Shown piece after piece: positions 36,172 to 50,058 of a DNA stretch of 64,000 bases (position 1 is its first letter; every line of letters begins with the position of its first letter). The stretch is taken from the NCBI GenBank assembly GCA_965601925.1, contig OZ271854.1, positions 3,328,001-3,392,000 on the forward strand, in the 5' to 3' direction. The position numbers and the translations under genes are program-made. A model generated the notes under the pieces. It did no database searches and was not told the origin of the DNA. It saw only the letters and a list, made by a program, of their open reading frames with translations. This DNA comes from Alkalispirochaeta sp. (GTDB lineage: Bacteria; Spirochaetota; Spirochaetia; DSM-27196; Alkalispirochaetaceae).

Positions 36172-36894
36172 ATGGAACGATATGTGAAGATCGCCGTCCC
36201 TGCGGGTGTCGGCGCGCTCGTACTTTCTGTACTGGTCGGACTGATCGCCGGAGTATCGTTCGGTACCGTCGTGGTACGCGCCGTTGCATGGGCCGCTCTG
36301 TTTGCCGGTGCCGCGGTCGGGCTTGCGGCTCTCGTCGAACGTTTTATCCCGGAACTCGTGGACGGTGACGCGTCGCCGGGATCGGAGGCCGCATCGCGCT
36401 CCTCCGCAGGAGCGCGCGTCAATATCGTCGTGGAAGACGATGACACGGACGCGGGTGTCGAACGAGAGCCCGCGGCGACCGGAGCCCGCGCCACGGTTCT
36501 GCCGGTCGGAGACGACGAGAGCGACGCCGAACGGCAGGCGGGACCCGCGTCGGCGGAGTTGGTCGACGCGGTTGCAGAGCAGCTCGCCGACGACGAAGAG
36601 GCGGTGATGAGCCAGGCGATCGAAGAGGAGAGGAACGGCGCAGCGGTCGAAGTAGACGACGGCGCGATCGACGAGATGCCCGATATCGGCGCCTTTGCCG
36701 GTTCGTTCGTTTCTTCGGATTACGAACAGACCGAAGGATCGCCGGACGGGGAGATGGATGATTCCGTCTCGCTACCGGACCCCACACGAACCGACGGTTC
36801 GCGGTCAGGGGGGAGCGGCGAGGTAAATGCCGGCAATGATCCGGCTACGATCGCGCGCGCATTGCAGACGATGTTAAAACGTGACGGCGGTTAG
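36172..36894 (+). CDS. flgV: FlgV-like flagellar membrane protein (2 TM, acidic disordered tail, C-terminal helix)
   Basis: Two N-terminal TMs ending in FIPEL, acidic tail, C-terminal DPATIARALQTML; position between flhG and fliA matches that recalled for FlgV. Confidence 0.65.
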   Translation: MERYVKIAVPAGVGALVLSVLVGLIAGVSFGTVVVRAVAWAALFAGAAVGLAALVERFIPELVDGDASPGSEAASRSSAGARVNIVVEDDDTDAGVEREPAATGARATVLPVGDDESDAERQAGPASAELVDAVAEQLADDEEAVMSQAIEEERNGAAVEVDDGAIDEMPDIGAFAGSFVSSDYEQTEGSPDGEMDDSVSLPDPTRTDGSRSGGSGEVNAGNDPATIARALQTMLKRDGG

Positions 36895-36921: not shown

Positions 36922-37710
36922 ATGAGCGACCGCGTTCTGACCGAGAAGACAGAAGAAGAACTCTGGAGGGCTTACCGCAAGACCGGTGACGACGCCATCC
37001 GGAATCGTCTCGTGAAACAGTACCTTCCACTCGTGAAGTACGTCGCCGGCAAACTCGCCGTCGGCATGCCTCAGAATGTGGAGTTCGACGATTTGGTGAG
37101 CTACGGTGTTATCGGTCTGTTCGACGCGATCGACAAGTTCGATCCCGACAAGCACGTCAAGTTCAAGACCTACGCGGTGACGCGCGTGCGCGGTTCGATC
37201 TTTGACCAGTTACGGCAGCTCGACTGGGTTCCGCGATCGATCAGGCAGAAGACGCGTGAGTTGGAAGACGCGGTTCGGCGTCTGGAGGCGCAACTCGGCC
37301 GATCGGCGACCGACCGCGAGATCGCTCGCGAGCTGGGTATCTCGGAGCGCGATTTCGAGAAACTCATACTCAAGATAAGCGGTACGACGGTGCTCTCCCT
37401 CAACGATGTGTGGTACCCGGGGGACGACAACGACCGGATGTCCATCGGCGACAGCATCGAAAGTCCTCAAAATCGAAACCCCGACGCCATTGTAGAAAAG
37501 CAGGAGATTAAGCGCGTCATCGTTGAGGCGATCAACGATCTTCCCGATAAAGAAAAGAAGGTCCTCGTACTGTACTATTACGAAGATCTTACCTTGAAAG
37601 AGATCGGCGCCGTCCTGGGAGTGACCGAGTCCAGGATTTCTCAGCTACACACCAAGGCGATTATGCGACTCCGTGGACGGCTGACCAGTGTGAAGCGAGG
37701 TATCATGTAA
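36922..37710 (+). CDS. fliA: RNA polymerase sigma28 factor FliA/WhiG
   Basis: [36 protein letters not shown] and [20 protein letters not shown] motifs. Confidence 0.97.
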
Positions 37711-37712
37711 CC

Positions 37713-39683
37713 ATGGTAACGATGGAGCAACTCCAGGCGTTCATGCGCAAAGCGGCTCAGGACGACAACACGAAGAAGTATGTCAACGTGAGCGGCGATA
37801 GTCTGGAAGATGCGCTCCGCGAGGCGGCCGTCGAACTCGGACTTCCCATAAAGAAGATCGAATATGAGATCTTGGAACGCGGCTCGTCGGGGATGCTCGG
37901 CATGGGGAAGCGGCCGTTTCTCCTGGTCGCCTATCCCGCACAGGTACAAGCCCAGGGAATCGTCGGCGACGACTCTTTTGATATGGATTTCGGTTTCGAT
38001 TCCGAGGACACCGCCGACGCCAACGGACAAGCCTTTGTCCGTCTCACTCCCGAAGGAATCCTGCTCAAAGTGACGCCGCCGGAGGGCGACGGGGAGCGTG
38101 TGACCGAGCGTCAGGCGATGCACGTCATCACACATCGCACCAGAGACAAGGTAGACACCTCGCTGATCGCCAAGGTCGTGAAGCGCGCCGACGCCGAGTG
38201 GGTACGGATCGGTGAGTTCATGTACAACCCTGCCAACGACGCATACGTCTCCTGCGACATCGTCGAGGCCGAAATGAAGGCGATCGTGACGTTGACCGCC
38301 CCCGGAACGGGCGGCGCCGATCCGTCGGTGGATGCGATACGCGGCGTACTGGAGGCGAGCGGCATCGTTCACGGCATCAAGGAAGATGCTCTGTCGGCGT
38401 TGGAGGACAATCCGATCTATCGCGAGCCGTTGGTTGTGGCGGAAGGTACGAAACCGCGTCACGGCGCCGATGCCCGCATGGTGTTCAACTTCAAGACCGA
38501 CTCGCGGGAGATTCACCTCCAGCAGACCAAGGACGGAAAGGTCGACTTCAAGGAACTGAACAGAATCGAGAACGTCGTCGCGGGACAGGTACTCGCTCGC
38601 AAGGTTCAACCGGAGGCCGGGGAGCCGGGCGAGACGGTAACGGGACGCATGATTCCTGCAAAAGACGGCAAAGACATACCCCCGCCCTTGGGAGACAACA
38701 CGCGACTGTCGGACGACGGGCGCAGTATTCTGGCCGAGATTAACGGTCTGGTGAAGCTCGTAAACGGCAAGGTAACCGTCGAGCCGATTTATCTGGTGGA
38801 CGGCGACGTCAACATAAAAGAGGGCAACATCCACTTTCTTGGTACCGTCATCGTCAAGGGCAGTGTCGATGACGGTTTCAGCGTGAGCGCCGCCGGCGAC
38901 ATCGAGGTCATGGGGAGTGTCGGCAGAGGCGTGCTGGAGGCCGAAGGCGACATCATCGTACACCAAGGTATCGCGGGTAAGGGCGACGGTACGGTGACCG
39001 CCGGCGGGTCGATTTGGTCCAAGTTCATCGAAAACGGTAACGCCCAGGCCGGCGAGATGGTCGTCGTCTCCGACGGTATCATCAACAGTTCCGTCTTTGC
39101 CGACAAGCGCATCATTTGCCGAGGCCGTAGAGCGTCGATCGTAGGGGGACACATTCGAGCCGCTGAAGAGGTCGACGCGAAGACGCTCGGATCGGTCGCC
39201 GGTATGGAGACGATCGTTGAGGTGGGATACGATCCCAAGAGCCGGGAGCGATTGCTCGAACTCGAGGCGTCGGACGGCGAGCTGGCCAAAAACCTGGAAG
39301 AGCTCTCGCTCAATATGTCGACGATCGAAAACATGCGCAAGAATAAGCGCAAGATCAGCCCGGAGAAGATCAAGCACTACGCCGTTATGAAGATGCAGCG
39401 CGAGAAGGTGCTCAAGAGTCGCCAGAAGATCGGACGGGATATCAAGGCGATCCAGGATTATCTCGACGAGTTGAAGACCCACGGGAGGATCAGCGTTTCC
39501 GGTACCGTCTATCCCGGTGTCAAAGTGGCGATCAAGGACGCCCAGTTGCCGGTGCGTCACGAGGCCAGGGCGGTGACCTACGTCGCCGAGGCGGGTATGG
39601 TAAAAGTCACTCGTTACGAGGAGAGCCAGGCGGATATTTCGATTCGCAAGAAGGGGGGCAGGGATGTCGATACAGCCGATTGA
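37713..39683 (+). CDS. fapA: FapA family (DUF342) flagellar assembly protein with N-terminal Jag_N-like domain
   Basis: N-terminal SLEDALREAAVELG..YEILERGSSG (Jag_N-like); VDFKELN..NV, GNIHFLGTV beta-helix, coiled coil, VYPGV. Confidence 0.88.
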   Translation: MVTMEQLQAFMRKAAQDDNTKKYVNVSGDSLEDALREAAVELGLPIKKIEYEILERGSSGMLGMGKRPFLLVAYPAQVQAQGIVGDDSFDMDFGFDSEDTADANGQAFVRLTPEGILLKVTPPEGDGERVTERQAMHVITHRTRDKVDTSLIAKVVKRADAEWVRIGEFMYNPANDAYVSCDIVEAEMKAIVTLTAPGTGGADPSVDAIRGVLEASGIVHGIKEDALSALEDNPIYREPLVVAEGTKPRHGADARMVFNFKTDSREIHLQQTKDGKVDFKELNRIENVVAGQVLARKVQPEAGEPGETVTGRMIPAKDGKDIPPPLGDNTRLSDDGRSILAEINGLVKLVNGKVTVEPIYLVDGDVNIKEGNIHFLGTVIVKGSVDDGFSVSAAGDIEVMGSVGRGVLEAEGDIIVHQGIAGKGDGTVTAGGSIWSKFIENGNAQAGEMVVVSDGIINSSVFADKRIICRGRRASIVGGHIRAAEEVDAKTLGSVAGMETIVEVGYDPKSRERLLELEASDGELAKNLEELSLNMSTIENMRKNKRKISPEKIKHYAVMKMQREKVLKSRQKIGRDIKAIQDYLDELKTHGRISVSGTVYPGVKVAIKDAQLPVRHEARAVTYVAEAGMVKVTRYEESQADISIRKKGGRDVDTAD

Positions 39684-39987
39684 TCTGCAAACTCTCTTTG
39701 TCCGGTTGAGTCAAGTCGGGCGCGAGCAAGCGGCGATCAAACAGTCGGTTGCACAGAACCAACTCGTTACGGGAAATGAAATTGCAGAGCGGTCCCAAGA
39801 GGTGGGCCACACGGTGGAGGAGACCAAAGAGGTTTCCGAAGGACCGGAAACGGTGCACGAGGACGGATCGCCGAACGAACAACCTCACGGTGAGCAGCAC
39901 CGTGAGTCGGATTCGAAGCCGGAGGAGCATGCCGATGAAGCCTTTCGCGATCCGGATCTGGGACAGAATATCGATCTCACGGGATAG
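39664..39987 (+). CDS. Conserved hypothetical protein (flagellar operon)
   Basis: MSIQPIDLQ N-terminus and DPDLGQNIDL C-terminus; overlaps the fapA end. Confidence 0.75.
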   Translation: MSIQPIDLQTLFVRLSQVGREQAAIKQSVAQNQLVTGNEIAERSQEVGHTVEETKEVSEGPETVHEDGSPNEQPHGEQHRESDSKPEEHADEAFRDPDLGQNIDLTG

Positions 39988-39990
39988 GGC

Positions 39991-40572
39991 ATGACGTTCG
40001 GCCTGTATCTCCTTCTCAACCTCGCTCTATTGAGTATCCTCGTCGTATGGTTGAGACGGCTCGTGGTACGTCGCCTCGCTCCTGAGCGCATCCTGCAGGA
40101 TTTGTACGGTGAAATTCAAACCCTCGTCGCCGAGGTCAATCAGACGAGCGACCACAACGTATCCATCATAGAGGACCGGATCTCGTCGCTCCGTGAGCTG
40201 GTGCATAACGCGGATCGGCAAATTGAAGAGTTGGAGGGGCTTCTGCAACGAGTCACCGAAACGGTACCGGAGGAGGTCTATTCTCTTCCGTTGCCGACGA
40301 CGCGGCACGAGGAATCAGCGTCGACCGACGATTCCGGAAGGTCTGCCGATGAGACGCTATCCGCCGTAGGGGGCGGCGTGGGGGCGATGGACGACCAGCG
40401 GCGGAACGCTTCCGACGATCCACCCAGCGCAGCGGAGAAGGACCGCCGAACGAGAGTGGCGGAGCTCTACGAGCAGGGACTTTCCACCGAGCTGATCTCG
40501 TCCCACACCGGCGTCGCGATCGGTGAGGTCGAGTTGATTATCTCTCTGATACAAGGGCGGGCGCGACGATGA
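39991..40572 (+). CDS. Membrane-anchored coiled-coil protein with C-terminal HTH-like motif (DUF6115/SwrB-like)
   Basis: N-terminal TM, coiled coil, C-terminal LYEQGLSTELISSHTGVAIGEVELIISL. Confidence 0.7.
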   Translation: MTFGLYLLLNLALLSILVVWLRRLVVRRLAPERILQDLYGEIQTLVAEVNQTSDHNVSIIEDRISSLRELVHNADRQIEELEGLLQRVTETVPEEVYSLPLPTTRHEESASTDDSGRSADETLSAVGGGVGAMDDQRRNASDDPPSAAEKDRRTRVAELYEQGLSTELISSHTGVAIGEVELIISLIQGRARR

Positions 40573-42233
40573 CGGTCGGCATCGATCTGGGAACGACCAA
40601 TTCGTTGATCGCCTTTCTCGATGGGGATTCCCCGCGGTTGATACCGAACCGGCGCGGCAAGACAATTACACCGTCGGTCATCGGAGTTGATGCCGCGGGC
40701 GGGCTCTTGGTGGGTGAGGCGGCTCGCAATCAAGCCGTCGGTGCCGTCGATAGTACCGCGTATCACGTGAAGCGGCTGATGGGACGGCGAACCACCGTCG
40801 CACTGGGTGGTATCGGTCGGAGCCCTGAGGAGCTCAGCGCCGCCATACTGCGAGACTTACGCGCCCAGGCGTGCGCCTTTCTCGCCGGCGATCAGCACGA
40901 GGCGGTCGTTACCGTTCCGGCGCATTTCGACGAGCGGCAGCGCCTATCGACGACCGAGGCGGCATTTCTTGCCGGGTTTGACGCCGTGAGTCTCCTTAAC
41001 GAGCCCACGGCGGCCGCCTTGCCGTACGCCGCCCGCGACCGCAACCATGAACGGCTGGTCGTCTTCGACTTCGGAGGCGGTACCCTCGATGTGACCTGTC
41101 TGGAGCGCACGGGGCGTGAGTTTACCGTACGCTCGACCACCGGCGACGGTGAGCTCGGCGGCACTGATATCGATCATATCATCTGCGAGCGTCTCGCGGT
41201 TGAGTTTCGCGATCGCACGGGGAACGATCCGATGAACGATCCCCGACTACGCTACGTGATGTTCCAACTTGCCGAGCGGGCAAAGATCGATCTGTCGGAA
41301 ATGGAGGAGACGACCGTGAGCATGCCGTTCATCGGCGGCGGTCGGCAGGCGGTGCACCTGAACGTGAGGGTGACACGCGACGAGCTCGATGAGGCGATCG
41401 GCCCCTTGGTTGCGCGCGCTCGCGCCGTCGTCGAGGACGCGCTGGAGTCGGCGGGCTATCGCCGCGGCGGGTTCGACCGGTTGATCCTATCGGGCGGCAG
41501 CAGCCGGCTACCGGTGATACGAACGATGCTCCGTTCACACTACGACGCCCCTATCGCCGATCGGATAAACCCCGAAGAGGTCGTAGCCGTCGGCGCGGTC
41601 ATGTACGGCGAGAGCCGGAGGAGCGGCGCGTTTGCACTTCGTGAGGCGCTGTCGAGTACCCTCTCGGTCGAACTTGCCGACGGGAGCTGCGTGCCGATTC
41701 TTCGTAAGAATCAGACCGTTCCGACGCAGCAGACGCGTATCTTTACTACCGTCGCCGAGGATCAACAGGAGGCGGAAGTCCACCTCCTACAAGGCGATCA
41801 TCTCGACGCCAGCAGCAACCAGACACTCGGACGGTTCGTCCTCCGTGACATACAACGCGCTCCGCAAGGGGCCGCGCGTATTGTGGTGACCGTGTCGGTG
41901 AATGAGGAGGGACTCGTCAGTGTGCGTGCCGGTGACCGCGATACCGGTGCGTCTCGCGAGCTCGTCACACGCGCGTTACCTAAGGCCGAACGGCGGGAGG
42001 TCGAGGGAGATCGCAGGTATTATGCCGAGTCGGTCTTGCGCAGAGCCGAAGGGTTGTGTCGAATCGCGACCGAGGCCCTCCGTAAAGAGGTGGAGCAGAT
42101 TCTGTCCTCCGTGCGCTCGCGCGACGACTCCGGTCTTCCCGAGGACACGGTGGTCGTACTGGAGACGCTTATTCAGGAAATCGTCACCTCTCGGACGACC
42201 GTACCGGAAAGGAGCCATCGTGCAGCGTCGTGA
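40569..42233 (+). CDS. Divergent Hsp70-family chaperone (not the housekeeping DnaK)
   Basis: GIDLGTTNS, VTVPAHF, NEPTAAA, DFGGGTLDV, LSGGSSRLP and NPEEVVAVGA motifs; SBD-beta present (FTTVAEDQ), lid short; ATGA overlap with the upstream gene. Confidence 0.93.
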   Translation: MTVGIDLGTTNSLIAFLDGDSPRLIPNRRGKTITPSVIGVDAAGGLLVGEAARNQAVGAVDSTAYHVKRLMGRRTTVALGGIGRSPEELSAAILRDLRAQACAFLAGDQHEAVVTVPAHFDERQRLSTTEAAFLAGFDAVSLLNEPTAAALPYAARDRNHERLVVFDFGGGTLDVTCLERTGREFTVRSTTGDGELGGTDIDHIICERLAVEFRDRTGNDPMNDPRLRYVMFQLAERAKIDLSEMEETTVSMPFIGGGRQAVHLNVRVTRDELDEAIGPLVARARAVVEDALESAGYRRGGFDRLILSGGSSRLPVIRTMLRSHYDAPIADRINPEEVVAVGAVMYGESRRSGAFALREALSSTLSVELADGSCVPILRKNQTVPTQQTRIFTTVAEDQQEAEVHLLQGDHLDASSNQTLGRFVLRDIQRAPQGAARIVVTVSVNEEGLVSVRAGDRDTGASRELVTRALPKAERREVEGDRRYYAESVLRRAEGLCRIATEALRKEVEQILSSVRSRDDSGLPEDTVVVLETLIQEIVTSRTTVPERSHRAAS

Positions 42234-42867
42234 AGCGTTTCGGATACTCGGGCTTGATCCCGGCGCGCCCGTACAGACGGTAAAGGCCCGTTTTCGCGGC
42301 CTGGTTAAACGCGTGCATCCCGATGCGCGGCCGGCCGTGGGCCGCGCCGAGAGTATGGATGTCGGGACGATTACCGAGGCGTATCGTGTCATATCGCAGA
42401 CGTGGAGCGGGACACCTCGCTCGGCGCCCGACGGTCGGGAGCGGCGCGAAGCGGGAGCGGCGGGTAGGCGTGCGCCAAAGAGTACGCGTGTAGACCGGGG
42501 GAGTCGACTGTTCGATTTAGGGCGACTGGCGACGTCGGCGGCTCGTTCGGAGACGAGACGGTCGGCGCTCAGGGAACTCGGTCGCTCCGATATGTTCTCC
42601 GCGGTCGTCTACGTACAGCGCGCCTTATTCGATCCCGATCCGTCGGTGGCGTGCGAGGCCGCATCGATACTGCCGACGCTTCCCGGTATCGGTACCGAGA
42701 GGCTCCTCCTCGAGGTGTTCGATCGACTATCGGTAGCGCAGCGGCTGTGTGTACTGCGCACGATTCGGGACGCGTCGCTTCGAATGCCGCGCCTCGTTGC
42801 GTATGCTACGGCCGATTTGCATCCTCCCGTTCGAAGGCTTGCGGGAGATTTATACCGGTGGACGTGA
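42220..42867 (+). CDS. Class C J-domain protein with C-terminal HEAT-like repeats
   Basis: GTG 42220 after an AGGAG SD; AFRILGL..VKARFRGLVKRVHPD with HPD at residues 33-35; HEAT-like ALFDPDPSVACEAA and DLHPPVRRLA. Confidence 0.88.
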   Translation: MQRREAFRILGLDPGAPVQTVKARFRGLVKRVHPDARPAVGRAESMDVGTITEAYRVISQTWSGTPRSAPDGRERREAGAAGRRAPKSTRVDRGSRLFDLGRLATSAARSETRRSALRELGRSDMFSAVVYVQRALFDPDPSVACEAASILPTLPGIGTERLLLEVFDRLSVAQRLCVLRTIRDASLRMPRLVAYATADLHPPVRRLAGDLYRWT

Positions 42868-44531
42868 CCGAACCGTTGAAAAATAGACTCGCTCGGCTCG
42901 CTGAGACGGTAGAGCTTCATCTCTTGGAAGAATCGGATCCACCGTCGTCTTTGACGCCGGATATCGCCTCGGTCTTGGATGAGGTGCGTTTTCTCGGAGC
43001 CGACGACGTCGTCAATGTGCTCGAAGGTATTCGTCATCATCTCGAAGCGGATCCGCAATCGACGGACGATGAGTCGGATGAGCTTCTACCGCTCGTGTTT
43101 CGTCTCCGCGACCTTAGCGACGAGGCGGTCGAGATCGAAGAAGCCGCGACGGGCGAAAACGAGTATGTCGATCTCGATCTTCGTCCGGAGGTCGAAAGGG
43201 TTCTGATGCTCACCGAAGCGGACGAGCGATTGGTTAATGCCGGGGTCCAAAGCGGTGCGCGGATCTTTCTTATCGAGGTACGCGCGGAGACACGCGCTCT
43301 CGATGCGGTCCACGATGCGGTTGAGGCGCACTTTCGCGTCGTGCGGAGTCTTCGCCACGAGCAATCAGGTCGACTCACCTCCTTGGTCGTCGACACTACC
43401 GAGCCGGACGTGCGCCGGGCGCTCGAAGAGCGTCTCGATATCAAAGGGGTCGAAATTGCGGTACGCCCGGTGGACGGAGACGAGTTGCACCACCGGACGA
43501 TCGTCGCGTCCGGAGGGTATCGAGCGCTCCCGCGAATATCGGTCGCGGCGGACGCCGCAGCGCTGGAACGCATCTGGCTGTTTGCCGCGTTACTCGCGCC
43601 GAAGGTGGACGAAGCGGCTACCTCGGGATTGTGGAGCGACTTTCGTGCCGCCCTCGGTGAGGCGTTGACTATTGACGTTCCGACGCTTCTGGCGGATCTG
43701 CGAGAGCCGCTGGAGACGATGGCGCGCGCGAAGCATAGACCGGTACGTATTATCTTTTCCGGGGAGCCGCAACCGATCGGCGCGGAGATCGCCGAGAGTC
43801 TCCGCGAGACGGTCTTTGAGCTGTTGTCCAACGCAATTGCCCATGGAATCGAGACTGAAGCGGAGCGCGAGAGCGCCGGCAAACGAGCGATTGGAACGAT
43901 TCGGTGTATCGCCCAGTCTCGTCATCCCGGCCTCACGCTGAGGGTGCAGGACGACGGGCGCGGCGCCGACGAGACTGCGGTACGTCGGGCATTCTCCGGA
44001 CGTCGTCGCGGAGGACTCGCACGGGCGCGAAAGCTCGTTCGGGATCATCTGGGCGGGTGTATCGGCCTTCGTTCGAGCTCCCGCGGCACCACCGTGACCA
44101 TAGACCTACCGGCGGTCCGGGGAGTCTTTAGGGGATTGCCGTTTCGGAGAGGCGAAATCGACTTTGCGATTCCCGCCGCAATCACCGAAGCCGCGGAAGC
44201 GATCGTCGCGGAGCGAGTCGTTGTCGATGGGGCCGGCGGACGCTTTCTACGCTACCAACGGCGCGTCGTGCCGTTGGTCGAACCCCAACCGTCCGTCGCG
44301 CGGCAGGACGAGGGAGCGGAGGCGTCCGAAGCGCCGATCGGCCGCGACGACGATGGGCTCGACAATCGGCCGACCGCCGCGGTAGTGATACGTATCGGCG
44401 GGGCCCCGATCGCCCTGGCTGCCGACTACGTCGGAGACGAGACGGTGATGGTGTCTATGGAGGATGGAACGGTTTCTTTGCCGTCCGACCAAGGGCGCCG
44501 CCTCGCGGCGGTCTCGCTACGCGGGTTATAA
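42864..44531 (+). CDS. Degenerate CheA-like protein (HATPase_c plus CheW-like domain; probable pseudokinase)
   Basis: ELLSNAIAHGIE..ER..GK, VQDDGRG, GTTVTIDLP and CheW-like FAIP..VVPLV; no HxxKG phosphoacceptor motif; GTGA overlap with the J-protein stop. Confidence 0.82.
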   Translation: MTEPLKNRLARLAETVELHLLEESDPPSSLTPDIASVLDEVRFLGADDVVNVLEGIRHHLEADPQSTDDESDELLPLVFRLRDLSDEAVEIEEAATGENEYVDLDLRPEVERVLMLTEADERLVNAGVQSGARIFLIEVRAETRALDAVHDAVEAHFRVVRSLRHEQSGRLTSLVVDTTEPDVRRALEERLDIKGVEIAVRPVDGDELHHRTIVASGGYRALPRISVAADAAALERIWLFAALLAPKVDEAATSGLWSDFRAALGEALTIDVPTLLADLREPLETMARAKHRPVRIIFSGEPQPIGAEIAESLRETVFELLSNAIAHGIETEAERESAGKRAIGTIRCIAQSRHPGLTLRVQDDGRGADETAVRRAFSGRRRGGLARARKLVRDHLGGCIGLRSSSRGTTVTIDLPAVRGVFRGLPFRRGEIDFAIPAAITEAAEAIVAERVVVDGAGGRFLRYQRRVVPLVEPQPSVARQDEGAEASEAPIGRDDDGLDNRPTAAVVIRIGGAPIALAADYVGDETVMVSMEDGTVSLPSDQGRRLAAVSLRGL

Positions 44532-44576
44532 AAAAATGGAGGCGGCTCGCCTGGACGTCGTTCGCGTGCCGCCTCC
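44530..44576 (-). terminator. Rho-independent terminator (minus strand)
   Basis: Stem arms GGAGGCGGC (44538-44546) and GCCGCCTCC (44568-44576), followed on the minus strand by T7 (A7 at 44530-44536). Confidence 0.85.
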
Positions 44577-44603
44577 GTGAATGATCACATAATCACTCGT
44601 TGC
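44530..44603 (-). ncRNA. Candidate sigma28-dependent small RNA (~75 nt)
   Basis: Sigma28-like promoter directly upstream, small 5' hairpin, intrinsic terminator, no ORF. Confidence 0.45.
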
Positions 44604-44663: not shown

Positions 44664-46535
44664 TCAGGCGCAATAGCGCAGCAGAAGCGCTCTATGGTAC
44701 TCCGCCGCTTCACTCAGGGCGGTATAGATCACGCGCGCCTGCGAAATACTCTCACGCGCGGTGGTGGGAACGCGTGTCGTCGCCTCTTCCAACGCCTCGG
44801 CGGCGAGAAATCCGGCGAGCTCACGATGGGTGAGGGAAGATAGGCGACGGTCGATCTCGTCGAGAGCACCGAGCGCCTTCCGTACTGTCGCCCCGTCGTT
44901 GTGCGCGTCGTCGGAGGAGAGCGCGTCGTCGGCGGCATCACACGTCGTCAAACCGTCGACGGCGATGGTGCGTATCTCGCATAGGCTCGCAGTCAGGCGC
45001 TCCACGAGGTCGTCCCCTCCGGTTCTCGTCCTCGCGGCTACGGCGGCAAGCGCCGAGCGCGCCGCCTCAAGCGCCTTTCCGGTCGCAGGAGTATCGGTAA
45101 GCCATTCTCGAGGACTTGTGTATGGAACGCCGCGAATTGCGCTGCTCTCCGGTGAGAATAGTACCGTCCGAATCTCCGGATGGCGCTGCGCCTGCTCCTC
45201 GAACCATCCGCGATAGACATCCATCCGTGCATCGCTCACTACCGGTTTGCCGGCGGCGGACGGCACGAACGCCGCCTCGGCACCGTGAAGGTACTTCCAC
45301 AGACCGTGTTCCGCGGGGCGTAGTCGTGCGGCGATGCGCTGTAGGCGGACTTCGAAAAATGAATCGCGGCAGTGCGTCTGGTAGCCGGGAAAGCCCAAAT
45401 CGACCCCGGCAAGGGCGATGTGCGTCGCGCCGAGGACGCGGGCGAGATCCCACGCCGATGTCGCTACCGAGCCACCGGCCCCCAACTTGAGAGTCCGTCC
45501 GACAAGGGCATCGAAAAACGAGCCCAACGGAAAGAGCGACGCGGAGACGAGGGTCGGGCCGGTCCACAACCGCAGTGTCCGAGGGTGGGTGGCGGGTTCG
45601 GCGACCAGAACCGTCGCGGCGCCGCGGACCGAGTCGAGGTGGCGGGTATTCCAATACTGCGGATCGGCGATGATCGCGATGTCGGCATCCAGACCCACAC
45701 GTTGCAATGCGGAAACCGCCGTATCGACCGCAATAACCAAAGCGTGACGAGTAAGGCTTGCGAGGTGCGGCAGCGTGGCATCCAGGGTGGGGCCCGCTCC
45801 GCATACGACCGCCGGGACTCCGGCGGCGATACCCGCCAATCGGTCGATATCGGGAATGACACCCCACCGGCGAATCGTATGCAGCGTGTTGCGCACCCAC
45901 AGTTTTCCGAACCGGCGGAGGGTGTTACGGTTCACGCGTCGTCGCTGCATATAGCGACGCAACTCGTCTCGAATGCGTTCAAAGCGTTCTTTTTGGGCCG
46001 CGGCGAGGCTCGCCAGTTCTGCGCATACCGGGTCGTCAATACCGAGGTCGCGCAGAATGGGCGCCAGCGTTCCGGGCAGCCACGCCGGAACGAGTCGATC
46101 GGGACCGTAAGCGCACCACCACGCCGCATTGCGATGGGCGAGGGCCGCGCTCAGAATCGCAGGCGACAGACAGATCACGACGATCGATCCGCCGAGATAT
46201 GACGACCCGCGCGCCTCGGCCAGCGCTTCGAGATGGTGGCCGAGGCCGAGGCCGATGATCACGACGCCGGCTCCCGCGTTGTCCGCCTTCTCCGCCTCGA
46301 CGACGAGCCCTGCGGCGATACGGTCGGCCTCTTTGCGCGGATCTATCGAGCTATGTATCCACCGTCCCGCGACGCGTAGGCTCGTATCTCCGGTGCGCGT
46401 GGGGCGGAGCTCGACGTGCAGACGCTCGTCGTCGTCGATCGCGGTGGCGTCGTTCAAGGCTGCGCGAATATCCTCGGCGAGGTGCGGCCGGCAGCGCATC
46501 AAAACGGAGAGATCGGTACTATGGGACCTCGTCAT
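44664..46535 (-). CDS. Motility-associated factor (Maf, DUF115/MptE-like) flagellin glycosyltransferase family protein
   Basis: IHSSIDPRKEA, GLGLGHH, VCGAGPTL, IAVDTA, DPQ, GGSVATSA and GVDLGF motifs. Confidence 0.85.
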   Translation of the reverse strand: MTRSHSTDLSVLMRCRPHLAEDIRAALNDATAIDDDERLHVELRPTRTGDTSLRVAGRWIHSSIDPRKEADRIAAGLVVEAEKADNAGAGVVIIGLGLGHHLEALAEARGSSYLGGSIVVICLSPAILSAALAHRNAAWWCAYGPDRLVPAWLPGTLAPILRDLGIDDPVCAELASLAAAQKERFERIRDELRRYMQRRRVNRNTLRRFGKLWVRNTLHTIRRWGVIPDIDRLAGIAAGVPAVVCGAGPTLDATLPHLASLTRHALVIAVDTAVSALQRVGLDADIAIIADPQYWNTRHLDSVRGAATVLVAEPATHPRTLRLWTGPTLVSASLFPLGSFFDALVGRTLKLGAGGSVATSAWDLARVLGATHIALAGVDLGFPGYQTHCRDSFFEVRLQRIAARLRPAEHGLWKYLHGAEAAFVPSAAGKPVVSDARMDVYRGWFEEQAQRHPEIRTVLFSPESSAIRGVPYTSPREWLTDTPATGKALEAARSALAAVAARTRTGGDDLVERLTASLCEIRTIAVDGLTTCDAADDALSSDDAHNDGATVRKALGALDEIDRRLSSLTHRELAGFLAAEALEEATTRVPTTARESISQARVIYTALSEAAEYHRALLLRYCA

Positions 46536-48403
46536 TCGAGTTCCAGCCGGATGTTCATGCCGTGTTGGAACACGGTTCCCGGTGGAGGGGTCTGTCGCAC
46601 GACCCAGCCGCTGCCCTCGATGAGGACGCGGACGTCTTCGCGTCCCAAGAGCGGTAACAGTGCGCGGATCGGCAGACCCGTATAGTCGGGAATCGTACCG
46701 TCGATCGGCGGGAGTTGCGGCTTGCGGGTAGTAATGGTCCCGGGGTGCGACACGACAATATCGGTATCGCGCGGTATGTCCCAGTACGGCACAAGGAATT
46801 CGATCAGCCGGTCGACTGCCGGTGCGGCGATTCGTCCGCCGTAAAAGCTCTCGCCGCGGGGATAGTCAATGACGACATACACGATTAACTGCGGATCCTC
46901 GGTCGGAAACAACGCCAGAGTCGAGGCGATGAAATGCTCCTCCGAGTACGTTCCCGTCTCGGGATCGAAGACCTCCGCCGTTCCCGTTTTCGCTGCGACC
47001 GAGATACCTTCGACTTGAATCCGCCGCCCCGTGCTGTTGGGGTCGGTCGCACGGTCCATGAGCGAGAGCATCGTCGAGGCGGTACCGGGGGACAGCACCT
47101 CGCGAATCGGATCGCGCTCGAGACGCCGCAGCACCTCTCCGGAGGGTGAGACGATGCGATCGATGATTTGCGGGCGAAGGAGTATGCCGCCGTTTGCGAG
47201 TGTCGTTGCGGCGGCGAATATCTGGATCGCCGTCGTGCCGATCTCCTGACCGATCGCCAAGGTCGGGCGGCTGCGCGTCGACCACTCCTCAGGCGGCGCC
47301 AATAGGCCGTTCTCCTCGCCGTTCAAGTCGACTCCGGTGCGCCGGCCGAAACCGAATTGTGTCAACATCGTGTAGAAGGCGCCGGAGTCCACCCGCTCGG
47401 ATGCGTAAGCCGCGCCGACATTGCTCGAGAACTTGATGATCTCTTCGGCGTCGACCCACCCGTAGTCGGCCAAGTCGGTGATAACGTATCCGCCGTCCTG
47501 TGACCGATATCCGCCCGAAGTATTGAAGCGATCGTCGGTATCGATGCCGCCGAGCTCAAGAAAACCGGCCACGGAGAACGCCTTGAATACGCTTCCGGGC
47601 TCGTATATCTGCGATATGATGCGGTTGCGCCGCTGTTCGTCCGAGTAGTTGCGAAAGTTGTTCGGATCGAACGAGGGTTGGCTGGACAACGCGAGGAGCG
47701 CGCCGGTCCGCGCCTCTCCGACGATGATCATGACCGAGTCGGCATCGTGTTCGTCCAGAAGATCCTGTGCGATTTGGTCGGCCTCGCTCTGTATCGCGAG
47801 ATCCAGAGTGAGAAAGATTTGGTTGCCCATCATGAGCGAGAGATCGTCCTCTCTACCGGTGGGCGGCGCCAACTCTCCGGAAAACATGTACTCGATACCC
47901 GAGAGCCCCACGTTATCTACACCGGTAAAGCCGATCACCGCGGCCGCGGCGTCGCGTTCGGGGTAGCTCCGACCGGTGTCGGGTTCCAGGCGTATGCCTT
48001 GCAGACGACCCTCGCTGCGTTCGATGCGAATGCGTTCGCTCTGGCTGGGCGTGATCGTACGCTCCACGATGAGAAAGCCGTTCGCCGCGGCGAGTCGGTC
48101 CGCGAGTTCATCCTCCGATAGGTCGAGAATCTCGGCCAGAGTCCGCGCGGTAGCCTCGATGTCCTCGATCTCCGGCCTCCACGCCGTTACCGTATCCAAG
48201 CGGGTCTGAATCGCCAGAATGCGTCCCCGACGATCCATGATAGGACCGCGTTCCACCTCACCGAGCGCCGCCGAGCGCGCGGCCACCGAACCGGGAAGCA
48301 TGATCGAGGCGTACCTGAGAATGACAAGCGCGGCCAAAGACGCCACGACGATTCCGACGATCGTGAGCCGCGGCGACCGTTTGTCCGTGCTATTATGATC
48401 CAA
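46532..48403 (-). CDS. Class B penicillin-binding protein (FtsI-like) with C-terminal PASTA-like domain
   Basis: RGPIMDRRG, RSYP, GLSGIE, SxxK (PGSVFK), SSN and KTG motifs. Start set at TTG 48403 after a GGGAGG SD. Confidence 0.92.
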   Translation of the reverse strand: MDHNSTDKRSPRLTIVGIVVASLAALVILRYASIMLPGSVAARSAALGEVERGPIMDRRGRILAIQTRLDTVTAWRPEIEDIEATARTLAEILDLSEDELADRLAAANGFLIVERTITPSQSERIRIERSEGRLQGIRLEPDTGRSYPERDAAAAVIGFTGVDNVGLSGIEYMFSGELAPPTGREDDLSLMMGNQIFLTLDLAIQSEADQIAQDLLDEHDADSVMIIVGEARTGALLALSSQPSFDPNNFRNYSDEQRRNRIISQIYEPGSVFKAFSVAGFLELGGIDTDDRFNTSGGYRSQDGGYVITDLADYGWVDAEEIIKFSSNVGAAYASERVDSGAFYTMLTQFGFGRRTGVDLNGEENGLLAPPEEWSTRSRPTLAIGQEIGTTAIQIFAAATTLANGGILLRPQIIDRIVSPSGEVLRRLERDPIREVLSPGTASTMLSLMDRATDPNSTGRRIQVEGISVAAKTGTAEVFDPETGTYSEEHFIASTLALFPTEDPQLIVYVVIDYPRGESFYGGRIAAPAVDRLIEFLVPYWDIPRDTDIVVSHPGTITTRKPQLPPIDGTIPDYTGLPIRALLPLLGREDVRVLIEGSGWVVRQTPPPGTVFQHGMNIRLELE

Positions 48404-48749
48404 CGAAAAAAACCCTCCCGCGGATAAGCGATGCCGGTACCGCTCCAAAGTGTCTCGAATCGATGGAGTGGATCGCGTTGTCGCCACGTACAAAATATCG
48501 GTCTCGATCGATCGTTCGCTCAAGTCTTTTGATCAAAAGTGTTCCATTCTTCGGGTGATGAAACACGACGATATCCCCGGGACGCGGAGATCGTAGAAGA
48601 AAAGCCAGCCGATTAACGAGAACGACGCGCCCCTCCGGAAGGGTAGGCTCCATGCTGTGTCCGTCTACGGCGTACAACGCCACCGTCGCGTGCAGCGTCA
48701 CGCCGAACATCAAAACGGTCAACGCAACCGTGAGTACCGGAAAACGCAC
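48393..48749 (-). CDS. Short S26-family signal peptidase I
   Basis: One TM; GHSMEPTL (Ser), IKR (Lys) and GDN..SIDSRHFG motifs. Confidence 0.9.
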   Translation of the reverse strand: MRFPVLTVALTVLMFGVTLHATVALYAVDGHSMEPTLPEGRVVLVNRLAFLLRSPRPGDIVVFHHPKNGTLLIKRLERTIDRDRYFVRGDNAIHSIDSRHFGAVPASLIRGRVFFVGS

Positions 48750-48754
48750 ACGGA

Positions 48755-48783
48755 ACTATAATACGCTCCATTTTTCTTGTCGA
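48755..48783 (-). promoter_or_regulatory. Sigma70-type promoter for the peptidase-PBP-maf operon, overlapping a plus-strand TATAAT
   Basis: Minus strand TCGACA, 17-nt spacer, TATAGT, 5 nt before the GTG; plus-strand TATAAT at 48757-48762. Confidence 0.5.
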
Positions 48784-48795
48784 TACTGCTAATGT

Positions 48796-50058
48796 ATGGT
48801 CAGTGTGATCGAGCATCAGAAGGTCGAACGACGTAAGCGTGTTCAGCGCAAACTCAAAGTCACTACGAGCGGCCCCTCCTCTCGACGACGCGTATCCGGT
48901 ATACGGCTGGTCGTATCACGCGCGCTCTCGAAGCGGATATCCGGCGGGCGTCACCCTTCGACAGTCTCGCGGACGATGCGCCCATCGACCACAGGTGTTA
49001 CGTCCGTCGTCCTTCGGCTCGCCCGTGCCGTAAAGCGACGCGCAGTCGAAGCGCTGGGACGAGGAGCCAAGCGCGTTGCTCTCCGTGGCGCCGGCATGCT
49101 CATGTTTGACGAGCGCGACGTGCCGCTCCACGGCGCCGCCCTCGCCTTCGCACTGATCGCCAATATGGTTCTCGTCTCCATGAACATCGATCGTGTGCTG
49201 CTCTCCGGAGCGGTGGCGACCGTTACGCTGCCGCCTCAGGGAGAGTTGATCGTCCGCTCGTCCTTGACGCCCCAACGGGACGAGTTTGCCGTTATCGGCG
49301 AGGTTGCCGGCGTCGATCCGTCGCGCTTCGCCGCGTTGGAGGTCGCCTCCTATACCGTGCAAGCCGACGATACGCTGGGAGAGATTGCGCTCCGGTACAA
49401 CCTCGAACTCGATACGCTTATCAGCTTTAACCAGATTGAGGACGTGCGGCGACTGCAGGTCGGCGATGTGTATCAGATTCCCAATCGCGACGGATTGCTC
49501 TACACCGTAAAGCGTGGCGACAGTGTCTCTTCGATCGCCTCGGAACACGGCACGACGGTAAACGAGATTCTCGACGTCAACGACCTTCCGACGCGCATGA
49601 TTACCGCCGGACAGGTACTCTTCGTGCCCGGTGCGCGGCTCAACTCGACCGAACTGCGAATCATCCTGGGCGAGTTGTTTGCCTGGCCGACGCGCGGCAG
49701 ATTCACCAGCGGTTTCGGTATGCGGGCCGATCCGTTCACCGGCCTGCCGCGATTTCACAACGGCATCGACCTCGCCAACCGCGTCGGCACGCCCATCCGG
49801 GCCGCCGCGTCGGGGCGGGTCGTGCACGTCGAGAGCCAAATCGGTAACTATGGGCGCTTCGTCATCGTGCGCCATCCCGACGGATTTCAGACGCTGTACG
49901 CGCATCTGAATGATTTCTCGGTACGTACCGGACAGTACGTAGAAAGGGGACAAACTGTGGGAACGATGGGGAATACGGGACGGAGCACCGGCCCGCATTT
50001 GCACTTCTCGGTGATTCACAACGGTACATTTGTAAACCCGTTGCGTTATCTACATTGA
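48796..50058 (+). CDS. LysM x2 plus M23 metallopeptidase domain protein (NlpD/MepM-like)
   Basis: Two LysM repeats (YTVQADDTL, YTVKRGDSV); HNGID, YAHL and STGPHLHF Zn motifs; start uncertain. Confidence 0.92.
   Translation: MVSVIEHQKVERRKRVQRKLKVTTSGPSSRRRVSGIRLVVSRALSKRISGGRHPSTVSRTMRPSTTGVTSVVLRLARAVKRRAVEALGRGAKRVALRGAGMLMFDERDVPLHGAALAFALIANMVLVSMNIDRVLLSGAVATVTLPPQGELIVRSSLTPQRDEFAVIGEVAGVDPSRFAALEVASYTVQADDTLGEIALRYNLELDTLISFNQIEDVRRLQVGDVYQIPNRDGLLYTVKRGDSVSSIASEHGTTVNEILDVNDLPTRMITAGQVLFVPGARLNSTELRIILGELFAWPTRGRFTSGFGMRADPFTGLPRFHNGIDLANRVGTPIRAAASGRVVHVESQIGNYGRFVIVRHPDGFQTLYAHLNDFSVRTGQYVERGQTVGTMGNTGRSTGPHLHFSVIHNGTFVNPLRYLH

Follow-up and report, generated by a model that had tools for sequence, protein, structure and literature searches.

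What brings an Hsp70 chaperone, a J-domain protein and a relative of the chemotaxis kinase CheA together at the end of a flagellar operon? The question is raised by a stretch of 64,000 nucleotides, here called the window, from the genome of an Alkalispirochaeta sp. (5.05 Mb, 60% G+C, a single contig). In the window a flagellar run on the + strand, flhB-flhA-flhF-flhG-flgV-fliA-fapA-yjfB and a gene for a transmembrane and helix-turn-helix protein (TM-HTH), leads into three further open reading frames (ORFs) on the same strand: an Hsp70 of 554 aa (40569..42233), a J-domain protein of 215 aa, called J-HEAT here (42220..42867), and a CheA-derived pseudokinase of 555 aa (42864..44531). The original prediction saw in this trio a single machine in three parts, with the pseudo-CheA as its client or adaptor. 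We find that the trio is real, conserved and uncharacterised. With a probability slightly better than even, it consists of two separable additions to the flagellar operon: a dedicated Hsp70/J-HEAT pair, whose client would be associated with motility, and a remnant of CheA that would serve as a non-catalytic scaffold. Two additions are assumed rather than one machine because, among relatives, the CheA is inherited together with a distant CheY gene and not with the Hsp70 and J-HEAT. What was observed directly is the order and overlap of the genes, their motifs and co-occurrence, their place in trees and the purifying selection on them; every functional step is inferred.

The tight linkage of the three genes, which close the flagellar run, can be read in the sequence as originally described: the TM-HTH gene overlaps the Hsp70 start (ATGA), the Hsp70 and J-HEAT genes share 14 nt, and the J-HEAT and CheA-like genes overlap in GTGA. 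When the J protein was searched in 41 genomes, 36 matched, many via the J domain only, and 20 loci were picked from the best matches. The order Hsp70-J-CheA-like was present in 19 of these 20 relatives' loci (17 by BLAST, two by alignment; two loci end at contig ends). Thus the trio is not confined to its own genome, which was the outcome that would have spoken against the original prediction. In 18 of 19 scorable loci of the relatives, a start codon is available that would make Hsp70 and J overlap by 14 nt as in the window. A frameshift joining J and CheA was considered and rejected, since the two are separate ORFs with the same overlaps in the relatives. In G003 (L028:5080-8483) J-HEAT is present, but other genes stand behind it in place of the pseudo-CheA, which was not found anywhere in this draft genome; judged by eye, the two unrelated enzyme genes at this place may encode a CocE-type hydrolase and an ATP-grasp protein. 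Within the genus, the pseudo-CheA ORF is free of internal stops in 16 of 17 genomes.

Across 201 genomes of the class the three genes do not behave as an obligate system, and this idea was dropped because CheA and Hsp70-J each occur without the other. J-HEAT, counted as full-length matches of at least 80 bits (the next score was 63), is encoded in 46 of the 201 genomes, and a very diverged copy exists in G428. The CheA family, called with a P1+P2 profile at 129 bits or more, is found in 77 genomes, 38 with and 39 without J-HEAT; hence the CheA family does not need the chaperone pair. Eighteen of the 39 J-HEAT-less loci were fetched, and in all of them cheA stands right behind TM-HTH or cheW with Hsp70 and J absent, as it does in G252. 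In five J-HEAT genomes, namely G028, that of the window and three others of the window's genus, the CheA is diverged and scores below the threshold. When such copies are included, CheA is present in 43 of the 46 J-HEAT genomes. Hsp70-J without CheA is also found in other classes, the genomes without CheA being G141, G307 and G388, which are the three exceptions just mentioned, as well as G060 and G045.

What the CheA family does follow is an orphan CheY gene far from the flagellar operon, behind prfB. This CheY was first found with the CheY of a full chemotaxis cluster as the query and was called in the same 201 genomes with a six-sequence profile at 150 bits or more. It occurs in 80 of them, that is in 73 of the 77 genomes with the CheA family vs 7 of the 124 without, and the four CheA carriers lacking it are drafts of 88-92% completeness. 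All 20 fetched matches lie directly behind prfB, and so do four more (prfB-site loci L188-L190, L198-L217 and L222; in the window's own genome the site is C1:209330-210363). The six orphan CheYs that were aligned keep D9, D10, D54, S82 and K104. In the window's family cheY is cleanly absent behind prfB in 5/5 genomes checked, and the profile gave no match of at least 150 bits in 9/9 genomes searched. G028, which belongs to another family, keeps both the CheA His and a prfB-linked cheY (138 bits, below threshold). The CheA family tracks the distant prfB-linked CheY, not the chaperone pair. A three-part machine with the pseudo-CheA as its defining client or adaptor is not supported: outside the window's family 42/42 CheAs keep the phospho-His and look catalytically intact from their sequence, these CheAs co-occur with the orphan CheY and, in 39 of 77 cases, do without J-HEAT, and Borrelia-type genomes keep the Hsp70 only. 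In most lineages the CheA would be catalytically active and would phosphorylate the orphan CheY, which predicts an unstudied CheA-CheY pair in many spirochaetes.

The origin of the third gene is suggested by deeper lineages. In other classes and in three genomes of the class, a cheW-(cheR)-cheA-(cheY-cheB) cluster occupies the site at the flagellar tail, with or without Hsp70-J ahead. A cheW/cheA cluster stands there together with Hsp70-J in L054 and L135 and without it in L056, L061, L063, L170 and L175; full cheW-cheR-cheA or cheW-cheA-cheY arrangements were seen in L054, L056, L061, L135, L170 and L175. Because these lineages keep a chemotaxis cluster at the same spot, the third gene is probably a remnant of one. 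Full and compact CheA forms share the motif HS[IL]KSE and a PF07194 P2 domain, and in a quick CheA tree compact forms split off beyond the full forms. The family is likely to belong to chemosensory class F1, an assignment that derives from the PF07194 P2 domain and the fla/che position only. Like the CheAs of Bacillus and Thermotoga with this type of P2 domain, which are encoded in fla/che operons, it has the domain order P1-P2-P3-P4-P5, and its best structural and profile matches are the CheAs of T. maritima and E. coli. In contrast to these, no cheW, cheR, cheB or cheY adjoins the gene in most members of the class, P3 is short, P5 has diverged and, in the window's family, the phospho-His and the ATP lid are missing. 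The CheAs at this site represent a clean natural series from a full kinase cluster through a lone kinase co-inherited with a distant CheY to a conserved pseudokinase.

That the window protein derives from CheA is well supported. It matches HATPase_c (3e-11), and its AlphaFold model (predicted local distance difference test, pLDDT, 78.8) has a helical P1, an alpha/beta P2, a two-helix P3, a P4 and a beta P5. The top Foldseek matches of this model are CheA P3-P5 (E 1e-20), the N-terminal half matches Hpt+P2 relatives in a profile search (probability 99.4), and the family profile matches CheA P1 and P3-P5 chains. Thus Hpt, dimerisation, HATPase_c and CheW-like domains follow each other in the order of CheA. 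The features of an active kinase are lacking: there is no P1 phospho-His, and the N, G1, F and G2 boxes and the ATP lid are incomplete as a set. The P1 His is present in 0/16 members of the window's family, with Ala35 at its place in the window protein, vs 42/42 in other families. The earlier claim that the protein lacks the catalytic hallmarks of CheA therefore needs qualification. The P1 His, the F box and about 35 residues of the ATP lid relative to T. maritima CheA are indeed gone; the N box (Asn323, His327) and the G1 box (DDGRG, 363-367) are kept, and because of these residues the protein may still bind ATP. The segment from G1 to the end of G2 has 17 residues in the window protein and 11-31 in its family, as against 35-67 in 41 of the 42 relatives outside, the exception having 17. 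In one genus of the window's family the N and G1 boxes are lost as well (L037:9270-11063, L039:340-2133); these proteins have no Pfam match, and their ratio of non-synonymous to synonymous substitution rates (dN/dS) is 0.13.

For the pseudo-CheA of the window and its relatives, dN/dS was 0.10-0.21 in four pairs, which indicates purifying selection. The corresponding values were 0.05-0.075 for the Hsp70, 0.10-0.17 for J-HEAT, 0.03-0.07 for fapA and 0.18 for maf; all are pairwise Nei-Gojobori estimates, some with dS above 1. A pseudogene can be ruled out from these values together with the 16 of 17 genus genomes without internal stops. By its motifs and its conservation, the window protein is a conserved protein that is predicted to be non-catalytic, and a non-catalytic role for CheA is what this predicts. 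In the window's family it would act via the retained P3 and P5 surfaces, as a structural subunit or as a decoy beside the other chemotaxis systems of the genome. Five other CheA-like genes exist in this genome, one of them in a cheA-cheW-cheX-cheY cluster of F2 layout. A CheA-like protein of 716 aa is encoded outside the window at C1:3422713-3425726 (- strand); its N-terminus is hydrophobic, it has the motif HTFKSN, and a cheX-like gene and cheY come next. L193 has a comparable cassette. A search for homologues of the pseudo-CheA protein returned one true orthologue (78%) and otherwise ordinary CheAs and other HATPase proteins, and the closest named homologue came from a 'Spirochaetales bacterium'; genome searches found the family to be commoner than this would suggest.

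CheA proteins with dead domains are not without precedent. R. sphaeroides CheA3 keeps the domain layout while some of its domains are dead (PMC10542144); the passages of this architecture survey on CheA3-type dead domains do not describe the CheA family of the window. CheA3 differs in that it retains a phosphorylatable Hpt, has lost the kinase function and works with CheA4. The window protein has lost the His itself but kept the N and G1 boxes, and its gene has no neighbour that would encode a complementary partner.

The Hsp70 is an unmistakable member of its family (Pfam HSP70, E 8.7e-111). D6, G8, T9, K68, E145, D167, T172, D174, E236, K239, S243, G309-G310 and R313 match the positions of E. 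coli DnaK, and the DnaK-matching ATP-binding and catalytic positions are intact in the window protein and in nearly all of 32 flagellar Hsp70 copies. Yet it fails the cut-offs of the DnaK equivalog model (398 vs 822 bits) and of the HscA model (327 vs 708 bits). The subdomain-IB insert, which the genome's own DnaK has, is missing, the linker reads FALRE instead of the VLLLD of DnaK, and the shortened lid resembles that of HscC. In DnaK numbering, the flagellar Hsp70s have L392 changed to R, E217 to T and R167 to S, and in the substrate arch M404 changed to A, E or D and A429 to V or I; the first three we take to be J-docking and linker positions, and the roles of all these residues are presumed from DnaK. 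In a quick IQ-TREE run with 51 rows, in which HscA and HscC form long branches, 30 flagellar Hsp70s of the class including three of Borrelia type lie on one side of a branch with full support (SH-like approximate likelihood ratio test, SH-aLRT, 100). All DnaK, HscA and HscC rows are outside this clade, the DnaK of the genome itself falls together with that of E. coli, and the Hsp70 of L054 adjoins the clade (support 89). The clade separate from DnaK that had been anticipated was thus recovered.

Simpler identities were considered and discarded. The sole other Hsp70 of the genome is the DnaK of a grpE-dnaK operon (C1:4555426-4558106). It is 35% identical to the window Hsp70, and this low identity together with the separate clade rules out a recent duplicate of the own dnaK. 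A housekeeping DnaK was rejected on the equivalog score, the different linker, the shortened lid and the presence of a DnaK encoded with grpE elsewhere. Neither HscA nor HscC groups with the flagellar clade and the HscA score is under the cut-off, so orthology to them was ruled out too. Judged from its sequence, the flagellar-operon Hsp70 is an old paralogue that is neither DnaK nor HscA nor HscC and that groups with the Borrelia-type dnaK-1 (BB0264). Degenerate, split or substrate-domain-only versions occur in L134, L116, L122, L138, L135, L054 and L026, where J-HEAT is intact; in L140 the Hsp70 is gone altogether.

The J protein of the window was correctly described as class C: its J domain (residues 1-62) bears an HPD motif (33-35), G/F and zinc regions are absent, and a flexible linker leads to an extra domain of eight predicted HEAT-like helices (93-214). 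Pfam DnaJ matches residues 6-60 above its cut-off (1.5e-6); HEAT_2 matches residues 105-151 below the family cut-off (9e-4), which other class members exceed. HPD is invariant in 27/27 aligned copies. The model (pLDDT 88.5) shows three J helices, the linker and the eight helices. HEAT-like alphaRep binders come out as the closest folds, with no match reaching E <= 0.001.

The Hsp70 gene is directly upstream of J-HEAT in 43 of the 46 class genomes (37 by coordinates, six by fetched loci, of which five are shortened, split or degenerate), as expected if the J-HEAT gene is tied to that of the Hsp70. Of the remaining three, one locus is split across contigs, one is without a check and one, G277, has no Hsp70 upstream. 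In a sample of the phylum J-HEAT was found in 21 of 221 genomes, with 18 of 189 outside the class, spread over 10 families. In other classes all six newly fetched loci have the Hsp70 upstream, and in two of them cheW follows downstream. This co-encoding and co-inheritance, in 43/46 class loci and 6/6 from other classes, suggests that the Hsp70 and J-HEAT likely form a dedicated chaperone pair. The Hsp70 without J-HEAT was seen in 11/11 Borrelia-type genomes and in G188, where the contig ends. Against 1.84 billion representatives, the matches of the J-HEAT profile were dominated by long HEAT-repeat proteins, and among 10 J-HEAT clusters looked up the single one with a taxon name was 'Spirochaetia bacterium'. 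When a single J-HEAT was used to search for related loci, no more than two named loci from Spirochaetales and four weak matches came up. With the J-HEAT profile, a score of 95 bits was obtained for a 670-aa HEAT-repeat protein of a Geobacter sp. contig (L187:6113-8125), whose gene lies in a chemotaxis cluster just before cheR.

Fe-S assembly and a small number of other tasks are known to have Hsp70/J pairs of their own. As in E. coli HscC-DjlC/DjlB and HscA-HscB, a second Hsp70 is encoded here beside a class C J protein, and like HscC the window Hsp70 has about 555 aa, no IB insert, a short lid and a non-leucine residue at the position of DnaK L392. Unlike HscA and HscC, it lies outside both in the tree and keeps the subdomain IIB loop, which is shortened in these two; moreover its J partner bears HEAT-like repeats and the context is flagellar. 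Non-housekeeping Hsp70s whose phenotypes concern motility or chemosensory signalling are also known from M. xanthus, namely StkA and SglK (PMC4319316, PMC8265645). These come from another phylum and another type of motility.

A closer counterpart exists in Borrelia. The statement that B. burgdorferi has a second Hsp70, BB0264, at the equivalent place proved right. bb0264 is described as the last gene of the flgB operon (10.1101/2024.01.09.574855) and annotated as dnaK-1 (PMC3485029), and in four Borrelia-type genomes the Hsp70 lies between TM-HTH and S26/M23 genes. The Borrelia-type label of these relatives is itself deduced, their Hsp70 being at 273-293 kb vs 277-279 kb for BB0264. Like BB0264, the window Hsp70 follows the TM-HTH gene, and the Borrelia-type proteins belong to the same Hsp70 group; unlike it, they have about 490-510 aa and almost no lid, and neither J-HEAT (0 of 11) nor CheA is behind them. 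Since several classes, Borrelia-type genomes included, carry the locus, it is an old spirochaete locus, as had been proposed. Transposon mutants of bb0264 are viable, and the one clone tested had intermediate infectivity in mice, namely 7/15 tissue sites at both time points examined (PMC3485029). The parts of PMC3485029 and 10.1101/2024.01.09.574855 that deal with bb0264 assign no molecular function to it, so our reading offers a testable hypothesis for dnaK-1 and for the infectivity of its mutants, to which no mechanism is assigned there.

How could the pair work? Possibly like HscA-HscB or HscC-DjlC: the HEAT repeats would grip or select the client, HPD would make the cognate Hsp70 hydrolyse its ATP, and fast release, as suits the remodelling of assembled complexes, would follow from the short lid. 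The client would most likely be a product of the flagellar operon or the motor and export apparatus, because the Hsp70 stays at the site even where J and CheA are gone. If this holds, dedicated pairs would have a use that is new, tied to the flagellar operon throughout a phylum. The original prediction knew of no functional description of the trio, and our literature search, which covered few subscription journals, likewise returned none for the trio, the Hsp70/J pair or the CheA-prfB-CheY link.

Several observations weigh against two separable additions. Operon position is the sole link of the Hsp70/J pair to motility, and Treponema-like and many other motile families carry neither the flagellar Hsp70 nor J-HEAT; periplasmic flagella therefore do not generally require the pair. 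The Hsp70s of L069 and L073 have no settled place in the quick tree, and the CheA group of the window is on a long branch in the quick CheA tree. In the co-occurrence counts kin are not independent, the thresholds of 80, 129 and 150 bits were placed afterwards, at gaps in the scores, and five of the six CheY training sequences come from sampled genomes. J-HEAT genomes keep CheA in 43 of 46 cases vs 39 of 155 of the rest, an excess that could arise from synteny and shared ancestry. Finally, in the window's family the trio is nearly always together, and every His-less CheA sits behind Hsp70-J.

This last point leaves room for a coupling in the window's family alone, where the CheA relic, after losing catalysis and its CheY, could have become a client or adaptor of an Hsp70/J-HEAT pair that assembles or remodels arrays or motors. 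All 16 His-less CheA-likes are directly behind J-HEAT, the window gene is coupled to it by GTGA, and the gene is under purifying selection despite the loss of the His, the lid and the cognate CheY. There is precedent in the Hsp70 StkA, which is placed upstream of the Dif chemosensory proteins (PMC4319316), and in a HEAT_PBS protein reported as needed for taxis in Halobacterium (PMC2666748). Still, we regard such a coupling as unlikely, as the draft genome of G003 has J-HEAT but yielded no pseudo-CheA, and as across the class and beyond CheA and Hsp70-J occur one without the other in the genomes listed above. A complex prediction for pseudo-CheA with J-HEAT (alignments A8 and A4) gave no answer (score 0.00 vs the mark of 0.32) and was used for neither side. 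Less likely again is the fuller scenario in which the chemotaxis branch was split, with CheA at the operon end and CheY behind prfB, and the dead CheA of the window's family, after both phosphotransfer and the CheY had been given up, was repurposed as adaptor for a private Hsp70/J-HEAT machine that builds or remodels arrays or motors.

It is also conceivable that the pair serves a client outside motility, such as a protein of the cell wall, of division or of the stress response, and that its place at the end of a long transcript has no further meaning. Its absence from many motile spirochaete families would fit, and so would the convergent genes downstream (maf, PBP, signal peptidase and M23 peptidase); besides, chaperone genes can sit here without being flagellar, because in G025 and G030 a housekeeping grpE-dnaK-dnaJ operon adjoins the flagellar tail. 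However, different classes as well as Borrelia-type genomes retain the place behind fapA-yjfB-TM-HTH, where the codons overlap, and in Borrelia bb0268 is reported as co-transcribed with bb0272-bb0264 (10.1101/2024.01.09.574855); we judge this alternative rather improbable. Very improbable, finally, is a slow decay of the whole trio, in which weak selection acts on relics that no longer serve any specific function in this organism. It could explain why the Hsp70 is degenerate, split or truncated in G335, G353, G315, G281, G388 and L026, and also the repeated independent losses and the long branches. The dN/dS values of the three genes are nevertheless similar to or below that of maf, their frames are open across the genus at 24-37% identity, and the Hsp70 catalytic residues and HPD are kept. 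A non-motility client and functionless decay are thus both less likely than a chaperone pair and a CheA remnant added separately to the operon.

The genes ahead of the trio, all on the + strand, were assigned as follows. A flgV-like ORF without Pfam match (36172..36894) is named by its place between flhG and fliA, following the layout in 10.1101/2024.01.09.574855, from which the name of the yjfB-like small protein (39664..39987), an ORF at a conserved position, is also taken. Between them are fliA for sigma-28 (36922..37710; Pfam Sigma70_r2/r3/r4, named by gene position) and fapA (37713..39683; Pfam FapA, FapA_N and Jag_N), the anchor gene for synteny. The TM-HTH gene (39991..40572) is at the bb0265 position and has a weak DUF6115 match. 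As had been noted, grpE, hrcA, cheW and cheY are not nearby: grpE, cheW, cheY, cheR and cheB gave no match within the 64-kb window and hrcA, searched with a single query, none in the whole genome. A promoter scan of the region was at chance level (3 vs 1.6 +/- 1.2). Between the operon end and the convergent maf, a hairpin rich in G+C (44527..44580), which has a run of A on the + strand, looks like the terminator of the minus-strand transcript; a terminator scan placed a minus-strand site at 44552-44540 within it. Then follow, at 44664-50058, convergent genes for a maf-like protein (MptE-like domain), a penicillin-binding protein (PBP) and a short S26 peptidase, and a divergent LysM-M23 gene; the block maf-PBP-S26-M23 also comes after the flagellar tail in many class genomes. 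The housekeeping grpE-dnaK-dnaJ operon is directly behind TM-HTH in G030 (L085) and about 1.7 kb behind the trio in G025 (L139).

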